A DNA stretch of 64,000 nucleotides from Mytilus trossulus (Eukaryota), in the NCBI RefSeq assembly GCF_036588685.1, contig NC_086382.1, positions 44,206,001 through 44,270,000 of the forward strand. The letters run 5' to 3'. Both the position numbers and the translations under genes were made by a program. Of the stretch, positions 1 through 56,995 are shown piece after piece. How positions within the stretch are numbered: position 1 is the first letter of the stretch; each line of letters starts with the position of its first letter. The notes beneath the pieces were generated by a model, which did no database searches, was not told the DNA's origin, and saw nothing but the letters and a program-made list of their open reading frames with translations.

Positions 1-1333
1 GATAAAGTTGAAGTCCAATTTACTTTAAACTTAGCACAAGTATTCCCTCTGATTTGATCTTTCTAATTGTAATGCTTAATTATAGTTTTACCTCAATTTC
101 ACGGTCCATAAATTATCTGTGACAAACTGCGTTGGGCTTATAAGGGTATTACACTGCACTGGTATTGTATTTAAATCATAGGTTTTACTGACCGTGCCTC
201 TTAAGTGATGAATGATTGAAAGGGGTTCTGAAAGTGGCCCTGCTTTTTAATGAATACATCGAGAAAGTTTCGTGTAGAGACGGTAAAATATCTGCTATTT
301 TTCTTTTGTCCAAGGTCTACAAACCATCACAAATTAACTTAACTAAATGATTGTTGATTGTTTTTGTTTATTGTTTGTGCTCGTATGCACTCGGGACTAT
401 TAAAAGCCTGATATATTGCATAGATGGTGTCGGTCTATTGGTGAAGACAATTTGTTGCCTTCTAGATTAAACCACAGAACATCTCCTTTTGTTGTTATTC
501 AGAAAATCTATGGGATTCTTGAAATTGTAATTTTGTGGGGAATGTAATCGTATTTTTTATAATCACATTCTGGTTTGAAATTAAAACATGTGTATATTTT
601 TTTTTTAAAAGACAAGAAAGTAAAATGATTTAAAATTAACAATGACGCCAAACTTTAAGAAATGTATCAGTTATATCTGTGTGCATGTTTTTCCTTGAAA
701 AGCTTGCTTGATTTAAGGATTTATTTTTTCGATTAATACCTTCTCTCCTCTGTAACGAAAAAAACAACAAAACAATTAACACAATAAAAACAAATAAAAA
801 GCACTTTAATTTAACCAGCTGAAAATATGCCTTTGATGATGGATGTTAACGGCTAATCAAGACATTTATTAAAACAAGTTCGTCTAGTCGCACATGCATT
901 GATTTGGTACACGAAATTTTCATATCAAATATGACAAAGCCTTACAAAGCTTTTATATGAATAAAGCTTGGTGGTTTGAAAATTAACTTGTTAATTTGCA
1001 ATTCCGTTGTTTGATAGAGATATTTTCTCGTGGAATTTGAGGATTATAGAACCCAAAAATGTCCTGTGTGTATCATTCGATTCTTAATTTCGTTGATTAA
1101 TCTATTCATTACTGTCATAATTCGTAACCATCATTTGACAATAGTTTTTGGAATGATAGGACAATTGATCTACGAGGCCTATACAAGTGCTATTCTTATA
1201 GCTATAATGTCTTTTGATATCAAATATAAGCAAGATTTTTCATTTACAGTCCATCGCTTACACCCATTTGATTAGTTAAAAATGCTGCTTTTCTTTTTAA
1301 TAGTTATCAAAGGTACCAGGATTATAATTTAAT

Positions 1334-1377
1334 ACGCCAGACGCGCGTTTCGTCTACAAACGACTCATCAGTGACGC
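1334..1377 (-). ncRNA. Minimal type I hammerhead ribozyme
   Basis: GCGUCA-CUGAUGA-GUC(GUUUGUA)GAC-GAAA-CGCGC-GUC^UGGCGU: complete core, stems I and II, palindromic short stem III. Predicted cleavage between 1340 and 1339. Confidence 0.9.
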
Positions 1378-1689
1378 TCAGACCAAAACAGTTAAAAACC
1401 CAAACAAATACAAAGTTGAAGAGCATTGAGGACCCAAAATTCCAAAAAGTTGTGCCAAATACGGCTAAGGTAAGCTACTCCTGGGCGTAGGAAAATCCTT
1501 AGTTTTTCGAAATATTCAAAGGTTTGTAAACAGAAAATTTATAAAAATGACCATATAATTGATATTCATGTCAACACCGAAGTGCTGACTACTGGGCTGG
1601 TGATACCCTCGGGGACGAAACGTCCACCAGCAGTGGCATCGACCCAGTGGTGTTAATAGTTATCAAAGGTACCAGGATTATAATTTAAT

Positions 1690-1733
1690 ACACCAGACGC
1701 GCGTTTCGTCTACATACGACTCATCAGGGACGC
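1690..1733 (-). ncRNA. Minimal type I hammerhead ribozyme (weakened stem I)
   Basis: Core CUGAUGA/GAAA/GUC intact. Two stem I substitutions (GCGUCC/UGGUGU), including the pair next to the core. Confidence 0.8.
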
Positions 1734-2045
1734 TCAGACCAAAACAGTTAAAAACCCAAACAAATACAAAGTTGAAGAGCATAGAGGACCCAAAATTCCA
1801 AAAAGTTGTGCCAAATACGGCTAAGGTAATCTACTCCTGGGCGTAGGAAAATCCTTAGTTTTTCGAAATATTCAAAGGTTTGTAAACAGAAAATTTATAA
1901 AAATGACCATATAATTGATATTCATGTCAACACCGAAGTGCTGACTACTGGGCTGGTGATACCCTCGGGGACGAAACGTCCACCAGCAGTGGCATCGACC
2001 CAGTGGTGTTAATAGTTATCAAAGGTACCAGGATTATAATTTAAT

Positions 2046-2089
2046 ACGCCAGACGCGCGTTTCGTCTACATACGACTCATCAGTGACGC
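2046..2089 (-). ncRNA. Minimal type I hammerhead ribozyme
   Basis: Intact core and stems; cleavage site exactly 356 nt from the previous one. Confidence 0.9.
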
Positions 2090-2562
2090 TCAGGCCAAAA
2101 CAGTTAAATACCCAAACAAATACAAAGTTGAAGAGCGTTTTAAGTCATGCATCTGACAAATTGATTGAATGTGGTTTTAAGGACGCATCAGACCAAACTA
2201 TAAATATTTACATGAAGCTAATGTGTATCAATTTTATCCGAACCATGACAAAATATGGAACATTGTCAATTTTTTATATCATAATTTTACGTTTATTTTC
2301 AGCAACCACTTTCTAAATCATTAAAGCTTGACGGAAAACATTGATTTTAAACATTTTCGTTACTATTTGAATGCTAAATTCATGAAATTGTAGAGAAACG
2401 AAAGACGTTACTATATGTGAAGATGTCAATGTTTTGTATAGCTATTTCTACGTAGCCACGTGTCCTTGAAGTGTACGTGAAATAAAGACCAATACAGCAA
2501 TCAAAGGGTTTGCTCGTATACATTCAAAACAAAACATAAAATTACACAGGTATATTGCATTG

Positions 2563-2568: not shown

Positions 2569-2580
2569 CGGATATTATAT

Positions 2581-5500
2581 TTAGGAATTTGAAGCCATCA
2601 CGAATTCCATCCAGCTTTTGTACACACCAATTCGAGTGTACACGCTTGGACGACTTCCTGGACATCCACTCTGGCCCCAGGATGTTACACCAGCCAGTTG
2701 ACCAGAACAAACCATTGGTCCTCCACTGTCTCCCTAATGATAAATAAAGATGATGAAATATAATGGAGGGGTTAAAGAGTATAGATGTATTTATAGTAGA
2801 CTGTGGACAAATGAAAATGCATTGTATAAAAAAATAAAATAAGTAACATCTACACTTACTTAACACACATGTCTTATGACTAATGTTTCTCTCTTAATAT
2901 CTTCAATAAACGTTTGTCGTTTATTAAACTCTTTGAATATTGATGAATGTAAAATCAGATAAATTTCATGCAAACAATTTCTCAGTAAAGAAACAATTTA
3001 ATCCAACTAAAAACTATGACACGCTGAAATATATATATATAAAAAGCTTCATATAGAAACTTAATCAGTACCTATGTAAGAATATGCATCACTTACGTTG
3101 CAAGCACCGTAACCAGTTCCTTGGAATATACAAATATGGCCGTCAAGTATGTTGTTGCCAGTCCAATAGTTTTTGCACTCACTGTTTCTTAGAACTTGCA
3201 TGCTTAATGCTTTCAAATTAGTGGGTAAACCGCCTAGAAAATAAAAAAAATGACAATTTCATACAAGAGACGTACTAGAGAAACATTATTATAGAATGGT
3301 CATACAGACGAGTTCCAGAGCTGTCTCAAAATTGTCAGTATCCAATCAATTTTATATTATATATTTAAAGAACATTCACTAAGAGCATGTGGACCTTTTC
3401 TAAGGAACAATGGACTTATCCCACAAGTTCTGCCAGATTTTGTTTTCGAAATGTACTAACATGTTCCACAAGTTGTGCCAGACTTTGTTTTAGTTATTTG
3501 CTTACAGGTTTCACAAGTTCTGCCAGACTTTGTTTTAGTTATTTACTTACATGTTCCACAAGTTCTGCCCCACCCAGTGATTTCACATGTCTGGCCAGCA
3601 AACTCGTCAGGACTTCCTGTTGCCAAGGTAATGGCTGAAATACTTCCGGTTAATGACAAACTGGATGACATTTTCATCAATGCAATGTCATTTGGGAATG
3701 TTCCAGATCCTGAGTTGTAGTTTTCGTGCTACAAAAAAACAGTTTATAAAAGGGTTACATTTCGCTTTTTTCACAATTCCAAAATGCAATGTAATGATGC
3801 TTCTTATATACAAAATTTTGTGGGTTTTCAGTAAATTGTTTTTCAGATTATTTTTTAAATGTTTGTACTACGATCTGTTTTACAAATCAAATATCATGAG
3901 AATATATTACAAAGGAATTTTTTGTGACAATTTGATAACATTTACATATCATTATTTATTTACTTATTAGCTTTCATAACAGAATGCAGACATTATATGA
4001 ATAATATTTCAGAATGACTTATAAATTATTGCATGTATAAGACTTGGGATCCCATAGCTTACATATTATGCCCGATGATTATATTCGGACCCAATTTCAA
4101 ATAGTCCATCATGACATATCGAATTTTTTTCATGTTTATGTTGAGGGGTCTGTGATGCCTAACACGTATTAAGTGAAAGTATCAGGATATTAGTTATATA
4201 TGTTCATTTTAGATATTTTAATTATCACAAACACGTTTTTAAAGGTTGGCCAGATTCACTGTAGTGTCGTATATATGTTCATATACTTCTTCATTTTTGG
4301 TACTGAAAAGTCTTGCAGTTTACTTTTATTTTTATACCTTATATATGTGATAAAAATTATAAACATTATTGTCGACTCTAACAATATAATGTAATGGTGG
4401 AGATTTTTATACTTAACATTAGACTGATTGGTAAAATCTCTAAAAAAAAAAATCAAGCCTTGTATCTTACCTTCTCTTCATTTGTAGGAAAATCATTTGG
4501 GGAAAAGCAATCGCATGGAGACCGTGTATATTTAAAACGGGATTAGAAGGCGAGGTTTCCTATAATGTCAAAATATCACTGTGTAACTAATAATACACAA
4601 CTGTGTATAGGGGGATATATAAAAAAGAAGATGTGGTATGATTGCCAACGAGACAACTATCCACAATAGACCAAAATGACACAAACATTAAATACTATAG
4701 GTCACCGTACGGCCTTCAACAATGAGCAAAGCCCATACCGCATAGTAAGCTATAACTGTAGTTTTGTCAATACTAGACAAACACGTATTTTACCCTAATT
4801 GATTAAAGAAATAAATGATCAGAATATTACCGATACGATGAGCTCTATACTTCTTGTAGTGCCACCACTAGCATGAGCTGAAGATCCTGCTCGTATCCTG
4901 TAGTCTTGTCTGAATACAGAGAGAGAAAAAATATGTATTTTATTATCTATCAGCAATATGGGAGAGCAAAATGTGGTTTCATATCACTGGTGGTCTTTTA
5001 CATGTTCTAACTATATGAAACACACTACAAAGGAACCTACAACTAAAAGTCTTATAACAAAGTGTTTTGCTAAATACAAGTGGTTACGTTAGAAGGAATA
5101 ACTCTATAAATTCCAAAATTGATTTCATATTTTCCTCTTTGTTATCACCAAATTAACCTTAGAGCCTGTTGTGTGGATCGGTGGTTACCTCAAACCACTC
5201 CGGAATCGACCAATCATGAAAAACTGACCTTCAACAAATAGTCAATGGTGTCAGTGTGGCGTTGAACATAAAATAATCCATTTGCTGAGCTGTACAAGTA
5301 TATTAGTTTTTTATCTTTGCAATACGCCACAAAACATGGCTTGAATATTGATAATTATTTACTTGTAAAACAATGGCAAAACAAAATAAAAGAACATGGA
5401 GACCGAAAAACCCAAATATAATCCGTTTGGAAACGTTTTTTGAAAAATGTCAAGAAAGATTAAGTGTTAACCGATACTTAGAAATATGTTGAAAATGAAA

Positions 5501-9672: not shown

Positions 9673-10494
9673 AGTATATTGTATTTAATCTGCTTTTTAT
9701 AGGACACCATGATTGGTTGATAAAATTATCAAACATTTATTGATAACGCCCACACATAAATGTGTTACATGCGGTTTAAGTATAGCACTCAAACAATAAA
9801 ATGAGGCATTATGCATGCTGTACTTTTAAAAGGAGAGGAATTGATTTGTAGATATTTTAGAATAAACAAGCATTTTTCTTTATAACATTAAATTCATGTG
9901 TATAGACTTATGTATTTCATAGTAGAATGGACAATAGAAGTATTGTGGATTAATAGTATAATATCTGGGTAGATATATTTTATTCTACTATTTTTCATGC
10001 TGTTAGGCTACTGGACTTGTAGAATCCTCTGGGACAGATTGTCTATTAGCAGGTTCTGGTTCGGTGGTATTAATAAATAAAGGCAACAGTAATATACTGT
10101 TTAAATCAGTCTATACCTAACTAGAATTGGCAACGTAAATTTTCCGAATTTTTCATTCACCACAAATTTAGGTTCAGTATTTCTAATTTTCATTATTCTT
10201 TTAGAAAAAATCTAATGCATCTGTTGAATTATTTTCAAATTCTTAACCTCAAAACCATAAAGAATTGAGTGTATCAAAGAATAAAACATTTCAGTTACAA
10301 ATCTATAGGAATGTTTTCGTTTCTAACCATTCGATATATAAAATCCATCGATTTCTGCGCTTAGTCAATAAGTTTGTTATTTTATCTAAAACAGTACTGT
10401 TATATTTAAAGATAATACACAAATAAGAAAAGTCTTCAACAACCTCAAGTCCATTGTGATTTAATTGCCCTGCTCTCCAAGTTTAATGAATAAT

Positions 10495-10670
10495 TAGGTA
10501 CCAGGCTATTAATCAATACGCCAGACGCGCGTTTCGTCTTCATAAGACTTATCAGGGACGCTCAGATCAACATAGCTATAAAGACAAACAAGTGCAAAGT
10601 TGAAGAGCATGTATGACCAAGAATTCCAAAAGGCTGTGTCAAATACGGATAAGGTAATGCATGCCGTGGA
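10495..10670 (-). mobile_element. Degenerate retrozyme fragment (356-bp family)
   Basis: Similar to 1313-1480; hammerhead core mutated to CUGAUAA (10518-10561). Confidence 0.75.
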
Positions 10671-16087: not shown

Positions 16088-19000
16088 TTAGGAATTTGAA
16101 GCCATCACGAAGTCCATCCAGCTTTTGTACACACCAATTCGAGTGTAAACGCTTGGACGACTTCCTGGACATCCACTCTGGCCCCATGATGTTACACCAG
16201 CCAGTTGACCAGAACAAACCATTGGTCCTCCACTGTCTCCCTAATGATAAATAAAGATGATGAAATATAATGAAAGTGATAAATAGTATAAATATATTTA
16301 TAGTAGACTGCGGACAAATGAAAATACATTGTATAAAAAATAATATAGCATCTACACATATTGAACACACATGTCTTATTCTAATGTTTCTCTCTTGATA
16401 TCTTACAATATATTATCATGAAGCGTTTTTTTTTATTAAACACCTTGAATATTGATAAATGTCGAGGCCTATAACTTTCGTGCTAACAATTTCTCAGTAA
16501 AGTAACAATTTAATCCACATAACAAATATGAAACGCATATACAGCTTCATACAGAAACTTAATCAGTACCTATATAAGAATATGCATCACTTACGTTGCA
16601 AGCACCGTAACCAGTTCCTTGGAATATACAAATATGACCGTCAAGTATGTTGTTGCCAGTCCAATAGTTTTTGCACTCACTGTTTCTTAGCACTTGCATG
16701 CTTAATGATTTTAAATTAGTGGGTAAACCGCCTGGAAAATAAAAATTGACAATGTCATACAATAGACGTACTAGAGAAACATTATTATAGAATGGTCATA
16801 CAGATGAGTTCCACAGCTGCTCAAAATTGTCAGTATTCAATCAATTTTATTAAATATATTTTAAGATCATTCAATAAGAGCATGTGAACCGTTTCTAAAG
16901 AACAATGGACTTATCCAACCAGTTCTGCCAGATTTTGTTTTCGAAATGTACTAACATGTTCCACAAGTTCTGCCAGACTTTGTTTTAGTTATTTACTTAC
17001 ATGTTCCACAAGTTCTGCCAGACTTTGTTTTAGTTATGCACTTACATGTTCCACAAGTTCTGCCAGACTTTGTTTTAGTTATTTACTTACATGTTCCACA
17101 AGTTCTGCCAGACTTTGTTTTAGTTACTTGCTTACAGGTTTCACAAGTTCTGCCAGACTTTGTTTTAGTTATGCACTTACATGTTCCACAAGTTCTGCCC
17201 CATCCAGTGATTTCACATGTCTGGCCAGCAAACTCGTCAGGACTTCCTGTTGCCAAGGTTATGGCTGAAATACTTCCGGTTAATGACAAACTGGATGACA
17301 TTTTCATCAATGCAATGTCATTTGGGAATGTTCCAGATCCTGAATTGTAGTTTTCGTGCTACAAAAAAAGTTTATATAAGGGTTACACTTTTTTCACAAT
17401 GCCAAAATGCAATGTAATGATGCTTGTTATATACAAAGTTGTGTGGGTTTTCAGTAAATTGATTTTCAGTTTAATTTTTAAATGTTTGTACTACGATCTG
17501 TTTTACAAATCAAATATCATGTGAATATATTTCAAAGGAATTTTTTGTGATCGCAAGAGCCAGTAGGATAACATTTACATATCATTATTTATTTACTTAT
17601 TAGCTTTCATAACAGAATTCAGACATCATATGAATAATATTTCAGAATGACTTACAAATTATTGCATGTATATGACTTGGGATCCCATAGCTTACATATT
17701 ATGCCCGATGATTATATTCGGACCCAATTCCAAAAAGTCCTTCATGACATATCGATATTTTTTCATGTTTATGTTGAGGGGTCTGTGCTGCCTAACACGT
17801 AATAAGTGAGAATATCAGGATATTAGTGATATGTGTCCATTCTAGATATTTTAATTATCACAATCACGTTTTTAAAGGTTGACCAGATTCACTGTAGTGT
17901 CGTATATATGTTCATTTACTTCTTTAATTTTGGTACTGAAAAGTCTTGCAGTTTACATTTTTTTGTTACCTTATATATGTGACCAAAATTATAAACATTA
18001 TTGTCGACTCTAACTATATAATGTAATGGTGGAAATTTTTATATTTAACATTAGACTGATTTGTCAAATCTCTAAAGAAAAGATAAGCCTTTCATCTTAC
18101 CTTCTCTACATTCGTAGGAAAATCATTGGAGGAAAAGCAATCGCGTGGAGACCGTGTATATTTTAAACGGGATTAGAAGGCGAGGTTTCCTATAATGTCA
18201 AAATATCACTGTGTAACTAATAATACACAACTGTGTATAGGGGGATATATAAAAAAGAAGATGTGGTATGATTGCCAATAAGACGACTATCCACAAAAGA
18301 CCAAAATGACACAAACATTAACAACTAGAGGTCACCGTACGGCCTTCAACAATGAACAAAGTCCATACCGAAAAGTAAGCTATACATGTAGTTTTGTCAA
18401 TACTAGACAAACACGTATATTACCCTGATTGATTAAAGATATAAATGATCAGAATATTACCGATACGATGAGCTCTATACTTCTCGTAGTCCCACCACTA
18501 GCATGAGCTGAAGATCCTGCTCGTATCCTGTAGTCTTGTCTGAATACAGAGAAAAAATAAATATGTATTTTATTATCTATCAGCAATATGGGAGAGCAAA
18601 ATGTGGTTTCATATCACTGGTGGTCTTTTACATGTTCTAACTATATGAAACACACTACAAAGGAACCTACAACTTAAAGTCTTATAACAAAGTGTTTTGC
18701 TAAATACAAGTGGTTACGTTAGAAGGATTAACTCTATAAATTCCAAAATTGATTTCATATTTTCCTCTTTGTTATCACCAAATTAACCTTAGAGCCTGTT
18801 GTGTGGATCGGTGGTTACCTCAAACCACTCCGGAATCGACCAATCATGAAAAACTGACCTTCAACAAATAGTCAATGGTGTCAGTGTGGCGTTGAACATA
18901 AAATAATCCATTTGCTGAGCTGTACAAGTATATTAGTTTTTTTATCTTTGCAATACGCCACAAAACATGGCTTGAATATTGATAACTATTTACTTGTAAA

Positions 19001-24530: not shown

Positions 24531-24889
24531 TAATAAAATCAACGGTACCAATTTTGTTGCACCAGATGCGCATTTCGACAAAAAATGTCTATTCAGTGAT
24601 GCTCGTGGCCAAAATATTTGAAGTCCAAAGCTTATATAAAAGATGAAGAGCTATAATCCAAAAGGTCCAAAAAGTATCGCCAAATTCGTGAAAAGAATCA
24701 GAGCTTTGCATGAGGGAGATACATTCCTTAATTTATAATAATTTTTAATACTTTGTAACAGCAAATTTTAATAACACAAAAAATCCGTATTTTCATGCCA
24801 GTACCGAAGTACTGGCTTCTGGGCTGGTGATACCCTCGGGGACTTATAGTCCACCAACAGAGGCATCGACCCAGTGGTAGTAATAAAAT
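24531..24889 (-). mobile_element. Second retrozyme family, one 350-bp unit with 9-bp terminal redundancy
   Basis: TAATAAAAT at both ends; absent from the paralogous site near 11862. Hammerhead at 24559-24602: GCAUCA-CUGAAUA-GAC..GUC-GAAA-UGCGC-AUC^UGGUGC, with G8 changed to U. Confidence 0.8.
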
Positions 24890-27425
24890 TACATAACAAT
24901 CTTTTTTCCGTTCCTTTTTTAAGATATAATACTTTATATTTGTGTAATGCATGTGTATATTATTGGGAAGAACATCTTCCATAGATTTTTAAAATTTCAA
25001 ATAGTTATAATGGTGAAATATAATCTCTTTTTGAGGTAACCATGGCAACAATCTGCTTTTATTTGATACAGATATTGGGAAAAAATGGGAGGGTGAAAAT
25101 GTCACAAAAGTCTAAAAAGAAAAGGAAAATGGTCTAAAAGGAGAAATTTAAATCCATTACAGTTACACCTTTCATGAAACCATAGACATTTATCTAGAAA
25201 AAGATCCAAAAAATCATATGCAATTCTGCTCGTTTTTCCATAAAATGTACTTAAAAGGTCCAGGGTGAAATTTTTGTTGAAAAACACTACACTAATTTCT
25301 GGACCTGTGGGCGGTAAGGATGTTAAAAAAATGGACTGTCAAACAGACAAATGGCCTATAAAAATGCTAACACAATTTAAATGTTTAAATTAACCCACTT
25401 GGAAGGCTATATTATTCTTCAACTATCTCAAAATCAATTTTATTGTACAAAACCTTTTATATTTAAAAATAATCCCAATGACCAAGAAAACTAAACTTGT
25501 AACTGTGTATTGCTACCATAGGTTTTATAATCGGTGTCTTTATGTAATGATTGAAAGACGTTTTGAAAGAGACCATGTTTGAAATGAATACATCGAAGAA
25601 GTTCTGTGTAGAAACGGGTAAATAACTCTTCTATCTATAAATGATTGTTGATTGTTTTTGTTTAGTGTTTATGCTCGTATGCACTCGTGACTATTGGGAG
25701 CCCGACAAGATTAAACCGCACATCTCCTTTTGTTCATATTCAGATAGGATTCTTGAAAGTGTTATTTATACTGGGAATTAATAATTAAACACATTCTCGT
25801 ATGAAATAAAATCAATTATTAAAAAGCGTTAACAATAGCATTAAATTTGAAACACATCAAAAAGAAACAAAACAGCCAGGAGTTTTCCACTTGATAGAAA
25901 CTCTGCATACGGCTAATCGTTACATTTACCCAAAAAGTTTATCCAGTCGAACATGCGTTTTTTGTACACATATTGATTTTAATGTGGCAAATCTTCTTAT
26001 TTGCTTATAGCTTGGTGGTTTGAAACTTCACTTGTTGACAGATAATTCCGAGGTTTGATAGAGATATGTTCTCATGGAATTGCATGATTACAGAACTCGA
26101 AGGTTTTCTGTGTTTATCATTCGATTATTAATATTGATCCCTGCCATATTTCGTAACCAATATATGCAAATAGTTTTTGGAATGGCAGGACAATAGGATT
26201 ATCATGCCTATACCAGATATATAAGTAATATGTCTTTTGATACCAAACATAAGCAAGATTGTTCATATACAGTTCATCGCTTACACCAATTTTATTTGTT
26301 AAAATGCTGCTTCTCTGTTTAGTAATTTGGTAAATCGATTAATTGTGTTTTAAGGATGCATTCGAATAAACAGTATTATTTTCCATAAGGGAAACAGTCC
26401 ATTCTGTAAAATATTGGACTGTTATAGTTGAAAATGATGTTAGGAAGAATAAGAGTAACACCACAGGTCAATTTTGATAACCTAAAGATGAACGAGGATA
26501 AATCGTTTGAAAAAAGAAATTCATAAAAGCAACAAAAACAAAACTTACAACAAGCGTAATCAACTTATTGAATTAGTGCTAAAAGAGACAACCCAAAAAC
26601 ATAAGAAAAATGGCGAGGATATAAGTATTGGTAATGTTAAAAATCAATTTGAAAGTGGTTTTTTTTTTTCCCTCAAAAAAACGTTTTGATGAGTGACAAA
26701 CTATTGTATTGGTCGTTGACTTTAATCAAATGTTTTCTTTAATTGTCATTTGTTTTTTGGTTGTATTTTTGATAACATTATGAAAACAATTAGAGTAATT
26801 AATAGGTTTTTTTTTTATTTCAGTGATTGAACTATCATGTTAATAAAACATTGAATTGAATTGTACCTGTAAGAATCAGTTATGCTACCTTTAGCTGTCC
26901 CATATGTTTAAGAAAGAGGAGAGCTATTCTTCAAAATATTGGACAGCTGAAGGTAACATAATGGTTTCTTACAGGTAAATTTTAGTCCATTAACTGAAAT
27001 AAAGAACGGGTAAAACAAGAGAATGACGTAACAACATTTTTTTAAATGAAGCTAATGTGTTTCAATTTTGTCCAAACAATGATAAAATTTGGAACAATGA
27101 CAATTTTTGAAACACAATTTTACGAGATTTTTTTAGCAAACACATTTTCAATAATGAAAGCTTGACGGAAAATATTGATTTTAAATGTTTTCGTTACATT
27201 TTTAATTCGAAATTGTAGAGACCGCGAAACGTTACTATTTGTGAAGCTATCAATGACAAGTTATCTGGTTTAGCTCTTTCCGCGTAGCCATCTTTCTTCT
27301 GTCTTGAAACAAACCGTGTACGTGAAATAAAGACCAAAGAATCAATCAAAGGGTTGGCTTGCATACATTTTAAACAAAAAATAGAATAACACAAGTATAC
27401 TGCATTGTTTATTCGGACATTATAA

Positions 27426-30400
27426 TTAGGAATTTGAAGCCATCACGAAGTCCATCCAGCTTTTGTACACACCAATCCGAGTGTAAACGCTTGGACGACT
27501 TCCTGGACATCCACTCTGGCCCCAGGATGTTACACCAGCCAGTTGACCAGAACAAACCATTGGTCCTCCACTGTCTCCCTAATGATAAATAAAGATGATA
27601 AAATATAATGAAAGTGATAAAGAGTATACATATATTTATAGTAGACTGCGGACAAATGAAAATATATTGTATAAACAATAATATAGCATCTACACATATT
27701 GAACACACATTTCTTATTCTAATGTTTCTCTCTTGATATCTTAAATATTTTCTTATGAATGTTTTGTTATTAAACACCTTGAATATTGATAAATGTCGAG
27801 GCCTATAACTTTCGTGCGAACAATTTCTCAGTAAAGTAACAATTTAATCCACATAACAAATAAGAAACGCTGTAATATGTATATGTATATAAAGCTTCAT
27901 GCAGAAACTTAATCAGTACCCAAGTAAGAATATGCATTACTTACATTACAAGCACCGTAACCAGTTCCTTGGAATATACAAATATGGCCGTCAAGTATGT
28001 TGTTGCCAGTCCAATAGTTTTTGCACTCACTGTTTCTTAGCACTTGCATGCTTAATGATTTTAAATTAGTGGGTAAACCGCCTGGAAAATAAAAATTGAC
28101 AATTTCATAAAATAGGCGTACTAGAGAAACATAATTATTGATTTTATTTATGAATAATGCAATTGTCCAAACAAAAACTTACTCCCTCAGCCTAAGTTGA
28201 CCATAGACATTTTGAAATTTCAAGTTTTGTCTCATTTGGTTTTGACACTCTCTAAAATTGTATACTGAATGTATTGGCTTCCAGAAAAAATGTTGTAAAC
28301 TACGAAATAGGTGTCGCATGTTTTGATAACAATATGAAAAGATAAGTGGGGATGCTGGTGGAACGCCACATTCCAGGGCTTCGTGTGAAACTTTTCGAAA
28401 GAACCATGGACTTGTATATTCTACAAGTTCTGCCAGAATTTATTTGAAGTAAGTATTTACATGTTTATGCCGGGCTTTGTTTCAGTTATATGTTCTTACG
28501 TGTTCCACACGTTCCGCCAGACTTTGGTTTAGTTATTTACTTTCATGTTCCACAAGTTCTGCCAGACTTTGGTTTAGTTATTTACTTACATGTTCCACAC
28601 GTTCTGCCAGACTTTGGTTTAGTTATTTACTTACATGTTTCACAAGTTCTGCCAGACTTTGGTTTAGTTATTTACTTACATGTTCCACACGTTCTGCCAG
28701 ACTTTGGTTTAGTTATTTACTTACATGTTCCACAAGTTCTGCCCCATCCAGTGATTTCACATGTCTGGCCAGCAAACTCGTCAGGATTTCCTGTTGCCAA
28801 AGTAATGGCTGAAATACTTCCGGTTAATGACAAACTGGATGACATTTTCATCAATGCAATGTCATTTGGGAATGTTCCAGCTCCTGAGTTGTAGTTTTCG
28901 TGCTAAAATAAAGAGTTTATAAAAGGGTATTTCATTTCGCTTTTTTTCACAATACAAAAATGCAATGTAATAATGCTTGTTAAATACAAAATTGTGTGGG
29001 TTTTCTATAAGTTTTTTGGCAGTCTACTTTCCAAATGTTTGTACTACAATATGTTTTACAAACCAAATATCTTGTGAATATATTAAACAGGAATATTTTG
29101 TAAACGCACGAGCCAGTAGGGTTACCTTCTCCGACATTGGTATGTATGTATGACATAACTTGCACCTGACATATAACAGTATATTAATACAAATGTACAA
29201 ATTATTATTCATTTATTTATTAGCTTTCATAACAGAATGCAGACAATATATGAATAATTTTTAAGAATGACTTATATATCATTGTATATGACTTGAAATG
29301 CCATAACTTATATATTTGACCCAATGATCAATTCGGACCAAATTCCAAATAGTCCATCATGACATATGGATATTTCTGCATGTTTATGTTTAGGCGTCTG
29401 TGATGCCTAAAAATAATTATGAATGAGGAAAATCAAGATACCAGTTATTTTAGTAACTTTTTGATAATTTATTTACCAGAAACACGTTTTTAAAGGTTGA
29501 CTAGATCCACTAAAGTGTCTTATATATATACTGTTTAAATTTGACAAACCTACCAATCTTGCTTTTTTTCATTTTTGTTACTGAAAAGTCTAAAAATTTA
29601 TATATATTTTAATACCTTTATATATTTGATCAAATTATAAACATTAATGTCGACTTCAAGAATATAATGTAATGGTGGGGATTTCTATTTAACATAAGAC
29701 TGATTTGACAAATCTTTAAAAAAAAATAGCTTGTATCCTACCTCCTATAAATTTCTATGAATACCATTGGTTAAAGTCAACCGCGTGGAGACCGTGTATT
29801 TTTAGAATTGGATTAGAAGCGTGGTTTCGTAAAATGACAAAAGATCACTGTGTAACTAATAATACACAACTGTGACAATACTAGACAACCAAATATATTA
29901 CCCTGAATGATTTAAGGAATAAATGATCAAAATATTACCGATACGATAAGCTCTATACTTCTTGTAGTGCCACCACTAGCATGAGCTGAAGATCCTGCTC
30001 GTATCCTGTAGTCTTGTCTGAATACAAATAAAAAGAAATTTTTTTTATTATCTCTAGGCAATACGGAAGAGCAAAAATGTTGTTTTATACGACTAGTGAC
30101 CTTTTACACGTTCAAACTATATGAAACACACTACAAAGGGACCTACAACTAATAGCTCTATAACAAAGGTTTTTGCTATATGCAAGTGGTTACTTTAGCA
30201 GGTTTGACTCTATAAATTACAAATTGACCTTATATTTTCTTCTTTTTTATCACTAAATTAACCTTAGAAAGTCTGTTGTGTAGATCGGTGGTTACCTAAA
30301 ACCACTATGGAATCGACCAATCAATAAAAACTGACCGCCAAGAAATAGCCTATAGTGACAATGCACGTGGTGTTAAACATAAACAAAAATCAATGTGTGT

Positions 30401-39262: not shown

Positions 39263-40196
39263 ATGGCGGAGAATGGAGACGAAGTACAGCATGTCGCAAA
39301 AACAAAAAGACCAATTGTTATGCCAGATGTCTTTACTGGTGAAGAAGAATGGACAGATTGGCTATTTCAGTTTGAAAGCTGCTCATCATTGAACGACTGG
39401 AATGATGGCTTAAAATGTAAATTCATTATAGTTAGATTGAAAGGAACGGCAGGTAAGGTTTAAAGCGATCTAGATGATGACACTAAGAAAGATTGGACTA
39501 AATTAAAAGCAGAACTAACTGCAAGGTTTGACACAACTACAAGGCCAGATCTTTATAAATCAGAGTTTATGGGAAGAAACCTTCGGAAACATATTTGGAA
39601 ATGGTTAATTCAATTAGAACTCTGGCACGTAAGGCATATCCATCTTTGTCAAATATTGTCCGAGATGAATTAGCCAAGGATCAGTTTTTAAGGGACCTAG
39701 ATAAGACAGAATTAGCTTTGAAAGTGAGACATGCAAATCCGAAACGCTTGATGAAGCTATAAGAATGACGTTAGAGTGGGAAGCAGTGGAGAAAGACGTT
39801 AAGGATACAAATACTGCTCCAGAACAGAAAATTTTGGCCACGATGACAGATGAAACGGGTGCATGTGCAAGTATCAACCCGTCAAAAACAGACGAGCTTA
39901 TTAGTCTGATGACAGACATGATGAAACTGATGAAAGAGGATAAAGAAAGAACAACAGTGTCTTCTAGATATCAGCCACGTGGAAGAGGAGGCTATGGTCG
40001 AGGGCAGCGAGGAGGAAATCAAAAGGACTTGCAATGTTGGACTTGTTATGATTTTGGCCATACAAGCAGAGAATGCCATAAAAATAGACAGACGGGACAG
40101 CGCGGGAAACCTGGTGGTTGCTGGACATGTGGGAGACCTGGGCACATTAGCAGAGATTGCAGCCAGAATCCGGGAAACGAAAACAGGCTGATGTGA
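39263..40196 (+). pseudogene. gag: gag, disrupted
   Basis: MPDVFTGEEEWTDWLFQFE N-terminus and two CX2CX4HX4C knuckles; stop at 39461 and frameshifts between ~39580 and 39750. Confidence 0.92.
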
Positions 40197-43100
40197 AGGG
40201 TCACACGTCAGCCAAAATATTGGACCCTGATAGAAATTACCCTTTGGATGAAGACAAGGTAGAAACTGACTGTTTTAGCACGGGACTGTCAATTGTTTGT
40301 AGTGGGAAGATTGAAGGAAGACTGGTGGATATGTTAGTCGATACTGGCTCAGTTTATACACTGATAAGTGAAGCTTTGTGGGAGACCTTACGGAGTAACT
40401 TGTGCACGAGTGATAGGTACAGGTGTGCAGCAGGTAGTAGCACTATTGTACCTAGTACACTTGAGTTAGTAAGGGAACAGCACAAGGTCGTATCAGCAAA
40501 TGGTGAACCTATTGATATCTTAGGGAAAACACAACTAAGTATTTGTATAGGACAGGAAGTGGGAAGACAGTCAGTTTTAGTAGCTAGGGACCTGGCACAG
40601 GAGTGCATCCTTGGGGTTGATTTTATGAGGGCCCATAAATTGATAATTGATTTTGATACCATGGCATTGAAATCTAAAACAACAAATATTTGCCTTAAGA
40701 AAGGAAACGCTAATCTTGCGTGTAACATAAAATGTGCTAAAAAAGAAGTAATTCCTGCTGGACATGAAAAGATTATTGACGGAAAACTTGTTGCTAAGGG
40801 CAGAGGAGAGGTTATGACGACAAATTATGTCGGTATAATTGAATCAAAATTAAGGCAAACAAATGAGAAACCTGTACTGTTAGCACGAAGCCTTGTAATG
40901 TCCAAAAAATTAACTGTACCATTGAGGGTAGCAAATTTTTCAAGTGAAGACGTGACAATCTACAAAAACACTACTCTAGGGATTTTCTCTACGATTGATG
41001 AGAACTTTGATAAAGACAAGGGTGTTTGTGGTGCGGTAAACAGTTCTACGGGTTGTACTGGCATCAGGAACACAATTGATAATATGCATGTTGATTGTTC
41101 ATTAAATCTTGAACAAAAAGGAAGACTCAATTCCCTGTTAGAGGAATATAGCAGCATATTTTCAAATGGACCAGCTGATCTTGGTCGAACCTCATTGGTG
41201 AAACACCACATTGAAACCGGTAGTAGTTGTCCCCTGCGACAAGGGGTAAGACGTGTGCCTATACACAAGCAGAAAGAAATCAAAGATCACATTGACAACA
41301 TGTTACAGGAAAGGATTATTCAGCCATCATGAAGCCCTTGGGCAGCTCCTGTGATTTTAGTGCCTAAGAAGGATGGTAGTACTAGGTTTTGTATTGATTA
41401 TCGCCGGATAAATTCAGTCACTAAAATAGATGCATATCCATTACCACGGATAGACCAGACGTTGGATGCTCTTGCAGGGGCAAAATTATTCTCTTCTCTC
41501 GATTTAGTTAGTGGTTACTGGCAGATAGAATTAGATGCTGAAAGCAGAGAGAAGAGTGCGTTTACAACCAACTGGGGACTTTACGAGTTTAATGTCATTT
41601 CCGTTTGGTCTCTGTGGGGCACCTAGCACTTTTCAGAGACTGATGGAAACAGTTCTGGCGGGATTACAGTGGGACCTGTGTTTAGTTTACCTTGATGACA
41701 TTATCATCTTTAGTCACACTTTCGATGAACATTTAGTCAGACTCAAGGAGGTATTCGAAAGAATTCGAGGAGCGAACTTGAAGTTAAAACCTTCCAAATG
41801 TCACCTTTTGAAATCAAGAATTAATTGTTTAGGTCATGTAATTTCAGAAAAAGGTATTGAACCCGATGAAGCAAAAATCAAAGCTGTTAAGGACTGGACC
41901 CCTCCAAAATCTGCATCAGAGGTTCAGCAATTTTTAGGATTCGCCTCGTATTATAGACGATTTGTTGCAAAGTTTTCAGATATTGCATCACCATTATATA
42001 AATTGACTCAACAAAATACACCATTTATTTGGAATGATCGATGCCAAGATGCATTCTTGGAGTTGAAGAGGAAACTAACGACGGAACCTATTTTGGCTTT
42101 TCCGCTCAGTGACTGTGAGTTCATAGTTGATACTGATGCGAGTGATTTTGGAATAGGCGCTGTACTCTCACAGGTCCAGAATGAAAAGGAAGTCGTTATA
42201 GCTTATTCGAGTCGAACATTGAGCAAGTCTGAAAGGAACTACTGTACTACGAGAAAAGAGCTTCTAGCATTAGTGTTTTTCATTAAACAATATCGTCATT
42301 ATTTGTATGGCAAGAAATTTCGGGCAAGAACAGATCACAAAGCACTGAAATGGCTTTTCTCAATGAAGGAACCGGAAGGTCAAACTGCTCGGTGGATCAC
42401 ACAGTTATCAGAGTATGAATTTTCTATAGAACACAGAGAAGGTAAACGTCATAGAAATGCAGACGGAATGTCTAGAATACCTTGCAACCAGTGTGGTAAT
42501 GAGGATAATAATAATGCTACCTCTGTTGTAAATAAGCAATTTTGTTATGAACAGAATGATACGTCGAGGAGACAACAAAAATTAGTGAATAAGAATGATA
42601 CATCAGCTGGTTCTGGAACAGCATGTTGCAGCTCTAGAATCACTGATACGTCATCTACGTTAAGAGACCAGTCATCAAATGATAGTTTCCAGAAAGCGCA
42701 ACAGAAACAAGACAAAGACATTTATATGGTTTTATCTTGGGACATTGGAAATAGACGACCAGAATTTCGTGACGTTGAAGGAAAAAGTCCTGTGGTTAAG
42801 GACTTGTGGAGCAAGTTTGACCAATTGGTATTACACAATGAAATGCTATATATAAGATGGGAAAATGCAAGGAAAGAAGAATATAAATTGAAGATGGTTG
42901 TTCCACGTAAATTAGTCAATGAAATACTATACAACCTTCATACTAGCCCACTAGGGGGACATTTGGGAGTGTCAAAAACATTTGGAAAAGTTTCTGAAAG
43001 ATTTTATTGGTTTGGACTGAGGCGTGACGTTGAAAATTATGTCGCTAACTGCGTTGAATGTGTTACAAGGAAGAATCCGAGTAGAACAGCTAGAGCGCCG

Positions 43101-43736
43101 TTACAGCCACATTATTCTGGAGCTCCATTTGAGAAAATAGCAATTGACATATTGGAAGTGCCTATGTCGGATCAAGGGAACAGATTTATTGTGGTAATTG
43201 GAGATTATTTCTCTAAGTGGGCAGAGGCTTTCCCTTTAAAGAATCACACAGCTCCTGTGATCGCCGAAATCCTCATTGATCAGTTTGTATGTAGATTTGG
43301 TGCACCATTCCAATTGCATAGTTACCAGGGGCCTGAATTTGAGTCTCGACTGATATCAGAACTATGCAAGTTACTAGGAATTGATAAAACAAGGACGACT
43401 ACGTACCACCCTCAATCAGACGGTCAAGTTGAAAGATTCAATAGAACACTGCTCTCTATGCTCAGCAAGTACGTCAAAGAAAACCAAAGAGACTGGGATG
43501 TTCACCTACAAAAAGTGATGATGGGGTATAGAACTAGTGAACATGAGTCTACAAAGTTTTCCCCGGCTTATGTTCTTTTTGGAAGGGAACTTAGACTTCC
43601 ACTGGATGTGCAGTATCAGTTGCCTGATGGCAGCACTGCAAAACATGCCAGTGAATATGTGACGAGAACTAAGGAGAGATTTTTACAGGCATACGAAGTA
43701 GTAAGGGACTTTGTGCTTGACGATGAACTTGATTAA
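40157..43736 (+). pseudogene. pol: pol (protease, RT, RNase H, integrase), disrupted
   Basis: LVDTGS, YLDD, VDTDAS, HHCC, IAIDI..HSYQG..GQVER. Stop at 41330, frameshift at ~41600, second catalytic Asp of integrase changed to Tyr, C-terminus short. Confidence 0.95.
40172..40213 (+). promoter_or_regulatory. -1 programmed ribosomal frameshift signal (gag-pol)
   Basis: G GGA AAC in the gag phase (40172-40178), 7-nt spacer, stem GGCUGAUGUG/CACGUCAGCC (40186-40213); pol is in the -1 frame. Confidence 0.85.
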
Positions 43737-54849: not shown

Positions 54850-56024
54850 GTAGATAAAGAACAGATCTTACGTCAACATGGCCGTGATTGTCAGTATAAA
54901 GAACAGATCTTACGTCAGCATGGCCGAGATTGTCAGTATAAAGAACAGATCTTACGTCAACATGGCCGTGATTGTCAGTATAAAGAACAAATCTTACGTG
55001 AACAGGGCCGTGATTGTCAGTATAAAGAACAAATCTTACGTCAACATGGCCGTGATTGTCAGTATAAAGAACAGATATTACGTCAACAGGGCCGTGATTG
55101 TCAGTATAAAGAACAGATATTACGTCAACAGGGCCGTGATTGTCAGTATAAAGAACAGATCTTACATCAGCATAGCCAAGATTGTCAGTATAAAGAACAG
55201 ATCTTACGTCAACATGGCCGAGATTGTCAGTATAAAGAACAGCACTACGTCAACATGGCCGAGATTGTCAGTATAAAGAACAGATCTTACGTCAACATGG
55301 CCGAGATTAACAGTATAAAGAACAGATTTTACGTCAACATGGCCGAGACTGTCAGTATCAAGAACAGATCTTACATCAACATGGCCGCGATTGTCAGTAT
55401 AAAGAATAGATCTTACGTCAACATGGCCGTGATTGTCAGTATAAGGAACAGATATAACATCAACATGGCCGAGATTGTCAGTATAAAGAACAGATCTTAC
55501 GTCAACATGGCCGTGATTGTCAGTATAAAGAACAGATCTTACATCAACATAGCCAAGATTGTCAGTATAAAGAACAGATCTTACGTCAACATGGCCGAGA
55601 TTGTCAGTATAAAGAACAGATCTTACGTCAACATGGTCGGGTTAACAGTATAAAGAACAGATTTTACGTCAACATGGCCGAGACTGTCAGTATAAAGAAC
55701 AGACCTTACGTCAACATGGCCGTGATTGTCAGTATAAAGAACAGATCTTACATCAACATGGCCGCGATTGTCAGTATAAAGAACAGATCTTACGTCAACA
55801 TGACCGAGATTGTCAGTATAAAGAACAGATCTTACATCAACATGGCCGAGATTGTCAGTATAAAGAACAGATCTTACGTCAACATGGCCGAGATTGTCAG
55901 TATAAAGAACAGATCTTACGCCAACATGGCCGAGATTGTCAGTATAAAGAACAGATCTTACGTCAACATGGCCGAGATGGTCAGTATAAAGAACAGATCT
56001 TACGTCAACATGGAGATTGTCAGT
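54850..56024. repeat. 42-bp minisatellite, ~28 copies
   Basis: Unit CAGTATAAAGAACAGATCTTACGTCAACATGGCCGWGATTGT. Confidence 0.95.
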
Positions 56025-56995
56025 AGACACCTTGTTGGAACTTAGCCTTTTAAGTAAAATGTCTTGCACTGCCAGAAAAATATTTTTGTAATTATGAAAC
56101 TATTTTGTATTGTGTGAGAGTGATCATTGTTGAAGGTGAACATTGATCCTGGTGAGCGCACAGTCTATATTGAACGCACAGTCTCTATCGAACATTTGAT
56201 TTTCAAACCTTTAAAACAAAATCACGCATCTGCTATACTGTGAACTGCGACAAGCATAATTATGTGTAGAAGGAGATTAAGAGAGAGAAATTCTCTCTTC
56301 GTCATATCTTTTCAAGTACTACATCCAATTAGAAATGCAAAAAAAAATATTCAACAGAACCATGAACTGACGAAATATTTGCCACTGGTCGTTAAGCAAC
56401 CAGCAATCTATAAATCGTTAACAGATCTTATATTCCAACATATTTTAACGATTTGTTGTTACAGAACTTTCTCAAAAGAAAAGGATGGTTGAACGATCAC
56501 AAACTTATTATATTTTTTTTTTATTCGGGAGCCTGTATTCTGGAGTGGTAGTCTTTGGTTGCTGTTCCTCGGAATTGTAAGAACAATGTTGTAAATAGAT
56601 ATAGGAAGATGTGGTGTGAGTGCCAATGAGACAACTCTCCGTCCAAATAACAATTTAAAAATTAAACCATTATAGGTTAAAGTACGGCCTTCAACACGGA
56701 GCCTTGGCTCACACCAAACAACAAGCTATAAAGGGCCCCAAAATTACTAGTGTAAAACCATTCAAACGGGAAAACCAACGGTTGTAAATGTTTGTTTTTC
56801 GTTGTAAATGACTATTCTATATTGTATGAAAGAATAAATTGCAAATTGCATTTATTACTGATCTATATTTCATTAAATATTGAATAAATGAAGGGTTAGA
56901 CAATCGGTTCATATTGAAACATGTTCATGTTCCTTCCAAAAGACAACGCCAAGACAGTTACAGAGTAGGCCCACTCCTGTGATAACCAGTTAAAT

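Follow-up and report, generated by a model that had tools for sequence, protein, structure and literature searches.

The window, which is the whole 64,000-nt stretch of DNA analysed here, carries on its minus strand members of two repeat families that share a conserved block. The host repeat is a non-LTR retrozyme, with a tandem period of 356 bp and a type I hammerhead (RF00163) in each unit. A preliminary description of this DNA had placed one block in each of the two families; both were found at those places on the minus strand, and we added a third copy at 1926-2003. Copies of the whole block lie at 1570-1647 and 1926-2003 (family 1) and at 24797-24874 (family 2), all on the minus strand, and the 3' half of the block has three matches in the window against 0.00 expected. 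The features of the repeats and of the block are as follows.

1297..2136, minus strand: family 1 retrozyme array, 356-bp period, 2.4 copies, 5'-truncated; it stops at the tail, directly before a would-be third module
1334..1377, minus strand: type I hammerhead (RF00163, 34.6 bits)
1570..1589, minus strand: retrozyme-only terminal hairpin with a C(UUCG)G loop, followed by an AUG where the Naiad start codon sits; present in 6/6 retrozyme families and 0/3 Naiads checked
1592..1647, minus strand: core bulged stem-loop, family 1 copy, made up of stem P0 (6 bp), a 1x4 internal loop, stem Pa (6 bp), a near-invariant bulged core and stem Pc with a variable loop
1608..1615, minus strand: 3' strand of the invariant core, UCCCCGAG, the same in 11/11 rows of alignment A4
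1623..1633, minus strand: 5' strand of the invariant core, CUGCUGGUGGA, the same in 11/11 rows of alignment A4
1655..1668, minus strand: U-rich tail; its 3' edge at 1655 is the family 1 insertion end, 7 nt before P0, and the putative start site of the reverse transcriptase (RT)
1690..1733, minus strand: type I hammerhead upstream of the module, under the Rfam gathering score, with predicted cleavage after 1696
1926..1945, minus strand: UUCG hairpin, second copy
1948..2003, minus strand: core stem-loop, second family 1 copy
2046..2089, minus strand: type I hammerhead (RF00163, 35.8 bits)
10006..10092, minus strand: decayed 5' fragment of the second Naiad family, with tail, module and start codon
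22949..23035, minus strand: duplicate of the decayed Naiad 5' fragment
24532..24892, minus strand: lone family 2 retrozyme unit, stopping at the tail (24532); one core base of its hammerhead (about 24560-24601) is altered, and Rfam misses this hammerhead
24797..24816, minus strand: UUCG hairpin, family 2
24819..24874, minus strand: core stem-loop, family 2 copy, with a non-majority C-to-U change

Several other features were read in the window. A 5'-truncated family 1 fragment at 10490-10600 (minus strand) has a changed hammerhead core, a decayed tail and no module. The pol region of a Gypsy-type LTR retrotransposon, with a protease ORF and an RT-RNase H-integrase ORF, occupies 40151-43736 (plus strand), and a 42-bp tandem array of 28 copies at 54854-56025 has one frame open for 302 codons. 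Exons of a trypsin-like serine protease lie at about 2580-3700 (minus strand), with related segments near 16900-17200 and 28460-28750; a 45-bp intronic repeat recurring three times in this region suggests a local gene cluster formed by segmental duplication.

Retrozymes and Naiad elements bearing the module

The 3' half of the block, allowing up to two mismatches, has 20,764 matches in the 1.3-Gb genome, while the reversed control has none. The two families had been regarded as otherwise divergent, a view that does not hold, as they are homologous over the entire monomer. The claim that the block is better conserved than the hammerhead was borne out: between the family majority lines (32 and 56 distinct monomers), identity per 30-column window is 87-93% in the block, 47-73% in the hammerhead and 37-80% elsewhere. 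As for the compensatory and G-U changes reported between the two families, they are found as compensatory changes in the UUCG hairpin and are absent from the core, where only the loop and a single bulged base differ. The G-U change ascribed to family 2 occurs only in the window copy and a few others, the family 2 majority reading GCUGGU. Since the core does not covary between families 1 and 2, more distant homologues were needed.

Two further families in the same genome, F3 (1,000 exact matches to its pattern) and F5, bear the block, as do a family from other records, F4 (L224, L236, L445), and a 401-bp retrozyme of another host (L430, L484); F4, F5 and L430 were recovered with patterns requiring part of the core. 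The core is nearly identical in families 1, 2, 3 and 5, and the hammerhead ahead of the block differs in each of F3, F4, F5 and L430/L484. In three stranded RNA runs from a related sample, first mates map mainly to the plus strand (2- to 27-fold over most bins), so that, if the library is of the dUTP type, the retrozyme RNA is the minus, hammerhead-sense strand. The reads span the whole monomer, across T-runs. For the retrozymes of the mussel M. galloprovincialis, hammerhead self-cleavage and abundant circular RNA are described in the available text of PMC7229834.

Inverted, 5'-truncated retrozyme copies lie beside direct ones at four loci (L007, L026, L063, L064), a pattern described for insertions of Penelope-like elements (PLEs). 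At two loci (L271, L280) a family 2 copy lies within about 1 kb of a zinc-finger ORF, which from its translated motif we take to be nanos-like.

We searched the genome for GIY-YIG endonucleases and recovered several PLE families. A comparison with Penelope-element ends, proposed in the preliminary description, revealed the same stem-loop at the 5' boundary of Naiad elements. In Naiad-1 (L332), an intact ORF of 1056 aa has a GIY-YIG domain at 183-273 and a weak RVT_1 match at 824-907, and a DKA motif and a tandem copy are present. Its module stands at the 5' boundary after a similar U-rich edge, with a hairpin inserted behind the 5' strand of Pa; 13/13 full-length copies in which the ORF end lies upstream stop at the U-rich edge, and the 5' end agrees with the Naiad_Mgal consensus in the literature. 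With the mussel-genome Naiads withheld from its construction, a covariance model still picked out the Naiad-1 5' ends (30.5 bits, E 7.5e-5), and it had no hits among 29 other GIY-YIG loci, many of which are 5'-truncated.

Two weak matches of the model in the window led to a second family, Naiad-2, with a protein about 50% identical to that of Naiad-1 (L569: 927 aa, GIY-YIG 58-146, YIDD motif downstream). Its module lacks the insert and has the ACCA internal loop of families 1-3, which makes it a closer match in form to the retrozymes than Naiad-1. No hammerhead core was found in three of its four loci, and in the fourth only within an adjoining retrozyme. Both autonomous partners have the single ORF with GIY-YIG N-terminal to the RT by which Naiads are recognised. 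A third Naiad copy with the module (L467) lies on a host-derived MAG contig, and RNA depth is low at the Naiad 5' end. The module and the UUCG hairpin had been taken as one unit; they occur together in the retrozymes, and the hairpin is missing from the three Naiads checked. One Naiad-2 copy abuts a family 2 array (L552, L567); its position suggests insertion into the array rather than a chimera, and it was set aside.

To gauge the taxonomic range of the module, we read by eye the first 140-210 nt of 51 of the 54 published Naiad consensus sequences (PMC8557442, File S5), a visual survey with no computed score. The module is recognisable in 17/51: a ctenophore (Bfor), corals (Amil, Aacu, Anas), a fish (Cmel), hemichordates (Skow-1, Pfla-1, Pfla-2) and bivalves (CGi, Sglo, Olur, Tgra, Pmar, Mcor, Mgal, Bpla, Mphi). 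It was not recognised in the other 34, including the clams Mmer and (doubtfully) Scon, nor in these 140-210 nt of any arthropod, nematode or cephalopod Naiad. The module is therefore not universal among Naiads. None of the 17 consensuses that bear it is listed as TA-targeting, and none of 17 TA-targeting ends seen has it; it is likewise absent from the PLE families with a C-terminal endonuclease that insert in TA repeats. Across the 17 ends, P0 and Pa change widely yet stay paired, and changes in the core are confined to single positions. The L430/L484 retrozyme has a module of the oyster Naiad type.

In Naiads another small hairpin, whose loop contains GACG, was seen 35-45 nt past the module, in the part of the ORF that encodes the N-terminus (L332 at about 3707-3745, L542 at about 1626-1665, and L467), with weak folding support; with changed stems it also appears in several published bivalve and hemichordate consensus ends. 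In one genome (G000), a hammerhead repeat family that inserts in TA microsatellites (L339, L344, L351) has tails like those of Neptune-type PLEs and, by eye, no module; it probably rides, in the manner of a retrozyme, on PLEs of another clade.

Outside animal genomes, five of 54 metagenome loci are true homologues and the others chance. The scan of prokaryote genomes gave 111 loci, among them six host-derived homologues in MAGs (L418, L430, L445, L467, L484, L509), the remainder being treated as chance. These six are stretches of animal repeat or transposon sequence within contigs of bacterial MAGs; the stretch in L430 is joined to an ORF of bacterial appearance, a junction that suggests contamination or a faulty assembly. 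In a symbiont MAG, positions 900-2700 of the host-derived contig L418 hold about 25 units of 74 bp in tandem, which consist almost purely of the F4 module. In viral contigs the two-part core pattern has no matches and the Naiad protein no relative; the two half-patterns have 102 and 1 matches, the single match being unrelated when read.

Fold and covariation of the module

The module is a 56-nt bulged stem-loop with a nested fold. Single copies fold better than shuffled sequences (z -4.05 for the family 1 block, -4.73 for family 2). The preliminary description had called for a covariation analysis, and in an alignment of 11 rows 97.7% of 220 cells are paired in the nested fold and 7 of the 20 pairs, in the outer stems, show double changes, values reached by 0/500 shuffles in each case; these rows are related, most of the double changes come from three of them, and the shuffle control ignores relatedness. 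Slid registers of the same rows reach at most 58% paired. Naiad-1 was left out of the pair counts because alignment A2 misplaced its insert, and is represented only in the anchored parse, in which nine representatives have 52/54 cells paired in P0 and 53/54 in Pa.

RNAalifold yields the same nested fold unaided from 10 rows, and folding of single sequences agrees exactly in 5/7 homologues. The Naiad-1 sequence deviates, with its insert and an open core, and the L467 Naiad copy folds no better than shuffles (z -0.65). The outer stems co-vary around a near-invariant core. Pairing within the core is predicted, as its pairs never vary in these rows, and the invariance seen in alignment A4 is inflated because several homologues were found with patterns demanding the core. 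The spacing of the core is tight, with only 66 genomic matches at longer spacing.

The preliminary description had also proposed a pseudoknot. None of its six pairs shows a double change, its 5' strand never varies, 8/65 cells are unpaired, and only one of six pairs can form in each of the distant homologues L430 and L467, which together speak against a conserved pseudoknot. It is still compatible at 6/6 pairs in four mussel retrozyme families and Naiad-2, and may yet form in the mussel version. A look-alike of the hammerhead on the antisense strand of family 1 was dropped, since family 2 lacks its GAAA.

Rfam, which had been suggested as a check on novelty, has no match over the module in its retrozyme or Naiad context at E up to 5-10. 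Taken together, these results support a conserved functional RNA structure.

Insertion ends and the proposed role of the module

We then located the ends of insertions relative to the module, using one 260-nt reference per family. Among the four retrozyme and two Naiad families, 153/181 distinct insertion 3' ends are located no more than 12 nt upstream of P0 (48/59 in F1, 33/38 in F2, 25/30 in F3, 12/15 in F5, 16/20 in Naiad-1 and 19/19 in Naiad-2), in loci picked by module or endonuclease searches and not at random. Most lie 5-8 nt ahead of P0. The 5' starts of arrays are scattered, and the single 3' end site is the U-rich edge a few bases ahead of the module; the 401-bp retrozyme of the other host also stops just before its module. 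In six families the hammerhead cut and P0 are separated by differing distances (40, 40, 45, 48, 54 and 80 nt), and therefore the 3' end follows the module and not the hammerhead. On a circle or multimer, this tie places the module directly 3' of the required cDNA start point.

RNA read ends form no pile at the module boundary; they form none at the hammerhead site either, so this comparison has no power. A pile of antisense read ends at 1576 in 2/3 raw runs was taken as a hairpin fold-back artefact.

Ten small arrays, read by eye, consist of Naiad-derived units without a hammerhead. In nine of them, with periods of about 115-173 bp, the unit is the module, a little following sequence and the last 20-70 nt of the tail; the tenth (L558) is a 77-bp duplication running into the Naiad ORF. 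Their junctions differ from one another, and 8/10 stop at the usual 3' edge (L561 stops about 25 nt short). These sequences suggest that module and tail suffice for being copied, and the mini-arrays could also have grown by duplication or amplification at the DNA level.

Based on these results, we propose, with a probability of roughly 0.7 and from sequence comparison, that the module is the RNA element that the Naiad RT binds to start cDNA internally, a few nucleotides upstream, and that the retrozymes have borrowed it. The module has a fixed position and is shared between an autonomous element and its riders, as expected of an RT-recruiting element, and it covers about 7 to 63 nt downstream of the putative start. 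The invariant core, kept in place by stems P0 and Pa, would be bound by the Naiad protein, whose endonuclease would nick AT-rich DNA. The RT would then begin on the U-rich stretch 3-9 nt 5' of P0, copying away from the module, go round the circle or multimer and stop at random; the resulting arrays would be tandem, truncated on the 5' side and fixed at a single 3' end. The sole part of the hammerhead would be to supply the circle. The retrozymes may thus have captured the Naiad 5' end, including its AUG, added the stable hairpin and come to use the hammerhead for making circles. Among the functions listed in the preliminary description, RT recognition appears the best-supported option; ligation is disfavoured, as self-ligation of the mussel monomer is about 1% in the available text of PMC7229834, and so is a second ribozyme.

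Such a ribozyme would be an undescribed self-cleaving one, perhaps protein-assisted, that cuts just 5' of itself, substitutes for the hammerhead and makes the priming 3' end. A cut at the 5' edge of the module would produce identical fixed 3' ends, and the hammerhead-free mini-arrays require some route to a circle or multimer. The sequence of the core is invariant, HDV-like and truncated twister ribozymes occupy the 5' boundary in other elements (PMC7761336, available text), and Naiads are described without canonical hammerheads (PMC8557442, available text). On the other hand, the invariant core lies 12 base pairs from the boundary, where the bases vary, and the Rfam ribozyme classes (HDV-like, twister, twister sister, pistol, hatchet, hairpin and hammerhead) leave the module unmatched at E up to 10 or 5. 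The published mussel work further reports an intact 353-nt monomer purified after double hammerhead cleavage, and circles as >75% of the retrozyme RNA (PMC7229834, available text), so that we consider this route unlikely. It is quite unlikely, too, that the module is a translation element of the Naiad mRNA 5'-UTR (for uncapped start or start-codon control) which the retrozymes inherited. The AUG does lie 7-18 nt past P0 in Naiads and is kept 22-26 nt past P0 in retrozymes, yet the retrozymes have no long ORF and keep the module better than the hammerhead, and the tie of insertion 3' ends to the module would be left unexplained.

The tight spacing of the core would also suit a DNA element, either an endonuclease recognition site or an internal promoter with a Pol III B-box look-alike in the 5' arm. 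This look-alike has one mismatch to the B-box consensus in five mussel retrozyme families. It has four mismatches in three Naiads and the other-host retrozyme, in which pairing is nevertheless kept; a double-stranded DNA site would give the flanking stems no reason to covary, and the RNA reads cover the full monomer across T-runs. Internal promoters lie close to the pLTR junction of Penelope and of a Chlamys element (PMC8557442, available text), but a promoter does not explain the tie to insertion ends, and we regard a DNA element as very improbable. Finally, the near-identity of the core in families 1, 2, 3 and 5 could reflect a block functionless in retrozymes, obtained from a Naiad by recent capture or as a gene-conversion tract. 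The retrozyme stems differ from both Naiads of their own genome by compensatory changes, the other-host retrozyme has its own paired variant and insertion ends are tied to the module in every family tested; this reading is scarcely credible and largely refuted.

The recognition element proposed here may have a wider role, to which we give slightly better than even odds. The motif, found in Naiads from ctenophores to fish, would be the template-recognition and start signal of a telomerase-related RT; any small circle with the motif and a short U-rich tail would be copied as a tandem array, mussel retrozymes would be parasites of Naiads by virtue of this signal, and the motif might also, with the help of protein, cut or circularise RNA in place of the hammerhead.

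If the proposal is true, it names a candidate helper, which belongs to the hammerhead-less Naiad clade and not to the hammerhead-bearing PLEs first suspected. It touches two questions that have been stated as open, namely the identity of the enzyme that mobilises animal retrozymes and the way in which an RT can begin on a circle, where there is no 3' end. The 56-nt element and its start site are testable in an existing in vitro assay. As PLE RTs are the closest relatives of telomerase, a conserved RNA that determines where they start is also relevant to how RTs recognise RNA in general, and a transferable signal by which circular RNA is copied into DNA could serve as a tool.

Comparison with known systems

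The conserved motif and its position are new, while the host repeat, the Naiad clade, a general link between PLEs and retrozymes and internal initiation by PLEs were known. No account of the motif, or of a tie between Naiads and retrozymes, turned up in the literature and supplements searched, a set that takes in few subscription journals and neither Repbase nor Dfam. Structured RNAs that recruit an RT and fix its start include the epsilon stem-loop of hepatitis B virus and the 3'-UTR of R2. Like the module, epsilon is a bulged hairpin near a 5' end; protein priming takes place within its bulge, while R2 primes at the RNA 3' end. The module has no known sequence relation to either, and Rfam gives no match.

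The host repeats fit the non-LTR retrozymes of M. galloprovincialis (Cervera and de la Pena 2020, PMC7229834), which are 350-390 bp tandems with a type I hammerhead, two similar families and circles; unlike the repeats analysed here, no second motif appears in the available text of that work. A 2020 review states, in its available part, that metazoan retrozymes show no conserved motif pointing to a helper element (PMC7761336). In vertebrates, retrozymes have a terminal sequence in common with PLEs and have been proposed to use the PLE machinery, as derivatives of PLE pLTRs (Li et al. 2026, bioRxiv 10.64898/2026.07.22.740005); in its available text that work concerns Xenopus and other vertebrates, with no molluscs, no structured RNA signal and Naiad only in a coral.

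In the Poseidon element PAc, the RT starts inside the RNA and genomic 3' ends mark the start sites, as described in the available text of Frangieh et al. 2024 (PMC11167929). Initiation there depends on the RNA as far as about 55-60 nt past the start, and hammerhead cleavage is unneeded in vitro. This element differs from the one described here in that it belongs to another PLE clade and has two start sites inside the ORF, lying in an AC-rich stem-loop, no conserved motif being defined in that text. The Naiad clade (Craig et al. 2021, PMC8557442) is characterised by an N-terminal GIY-YIG with RT, partial tandems and no canonical hammerhead, all of which the Naiads of the mussel genome share. 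Its available main text mentions neither a 5' hairpin (0 matches to 'hairpin') nor a link to mussel retrozymes, while the consensus sequences that accompany it carry the module, where recognised by eye, at their very start.
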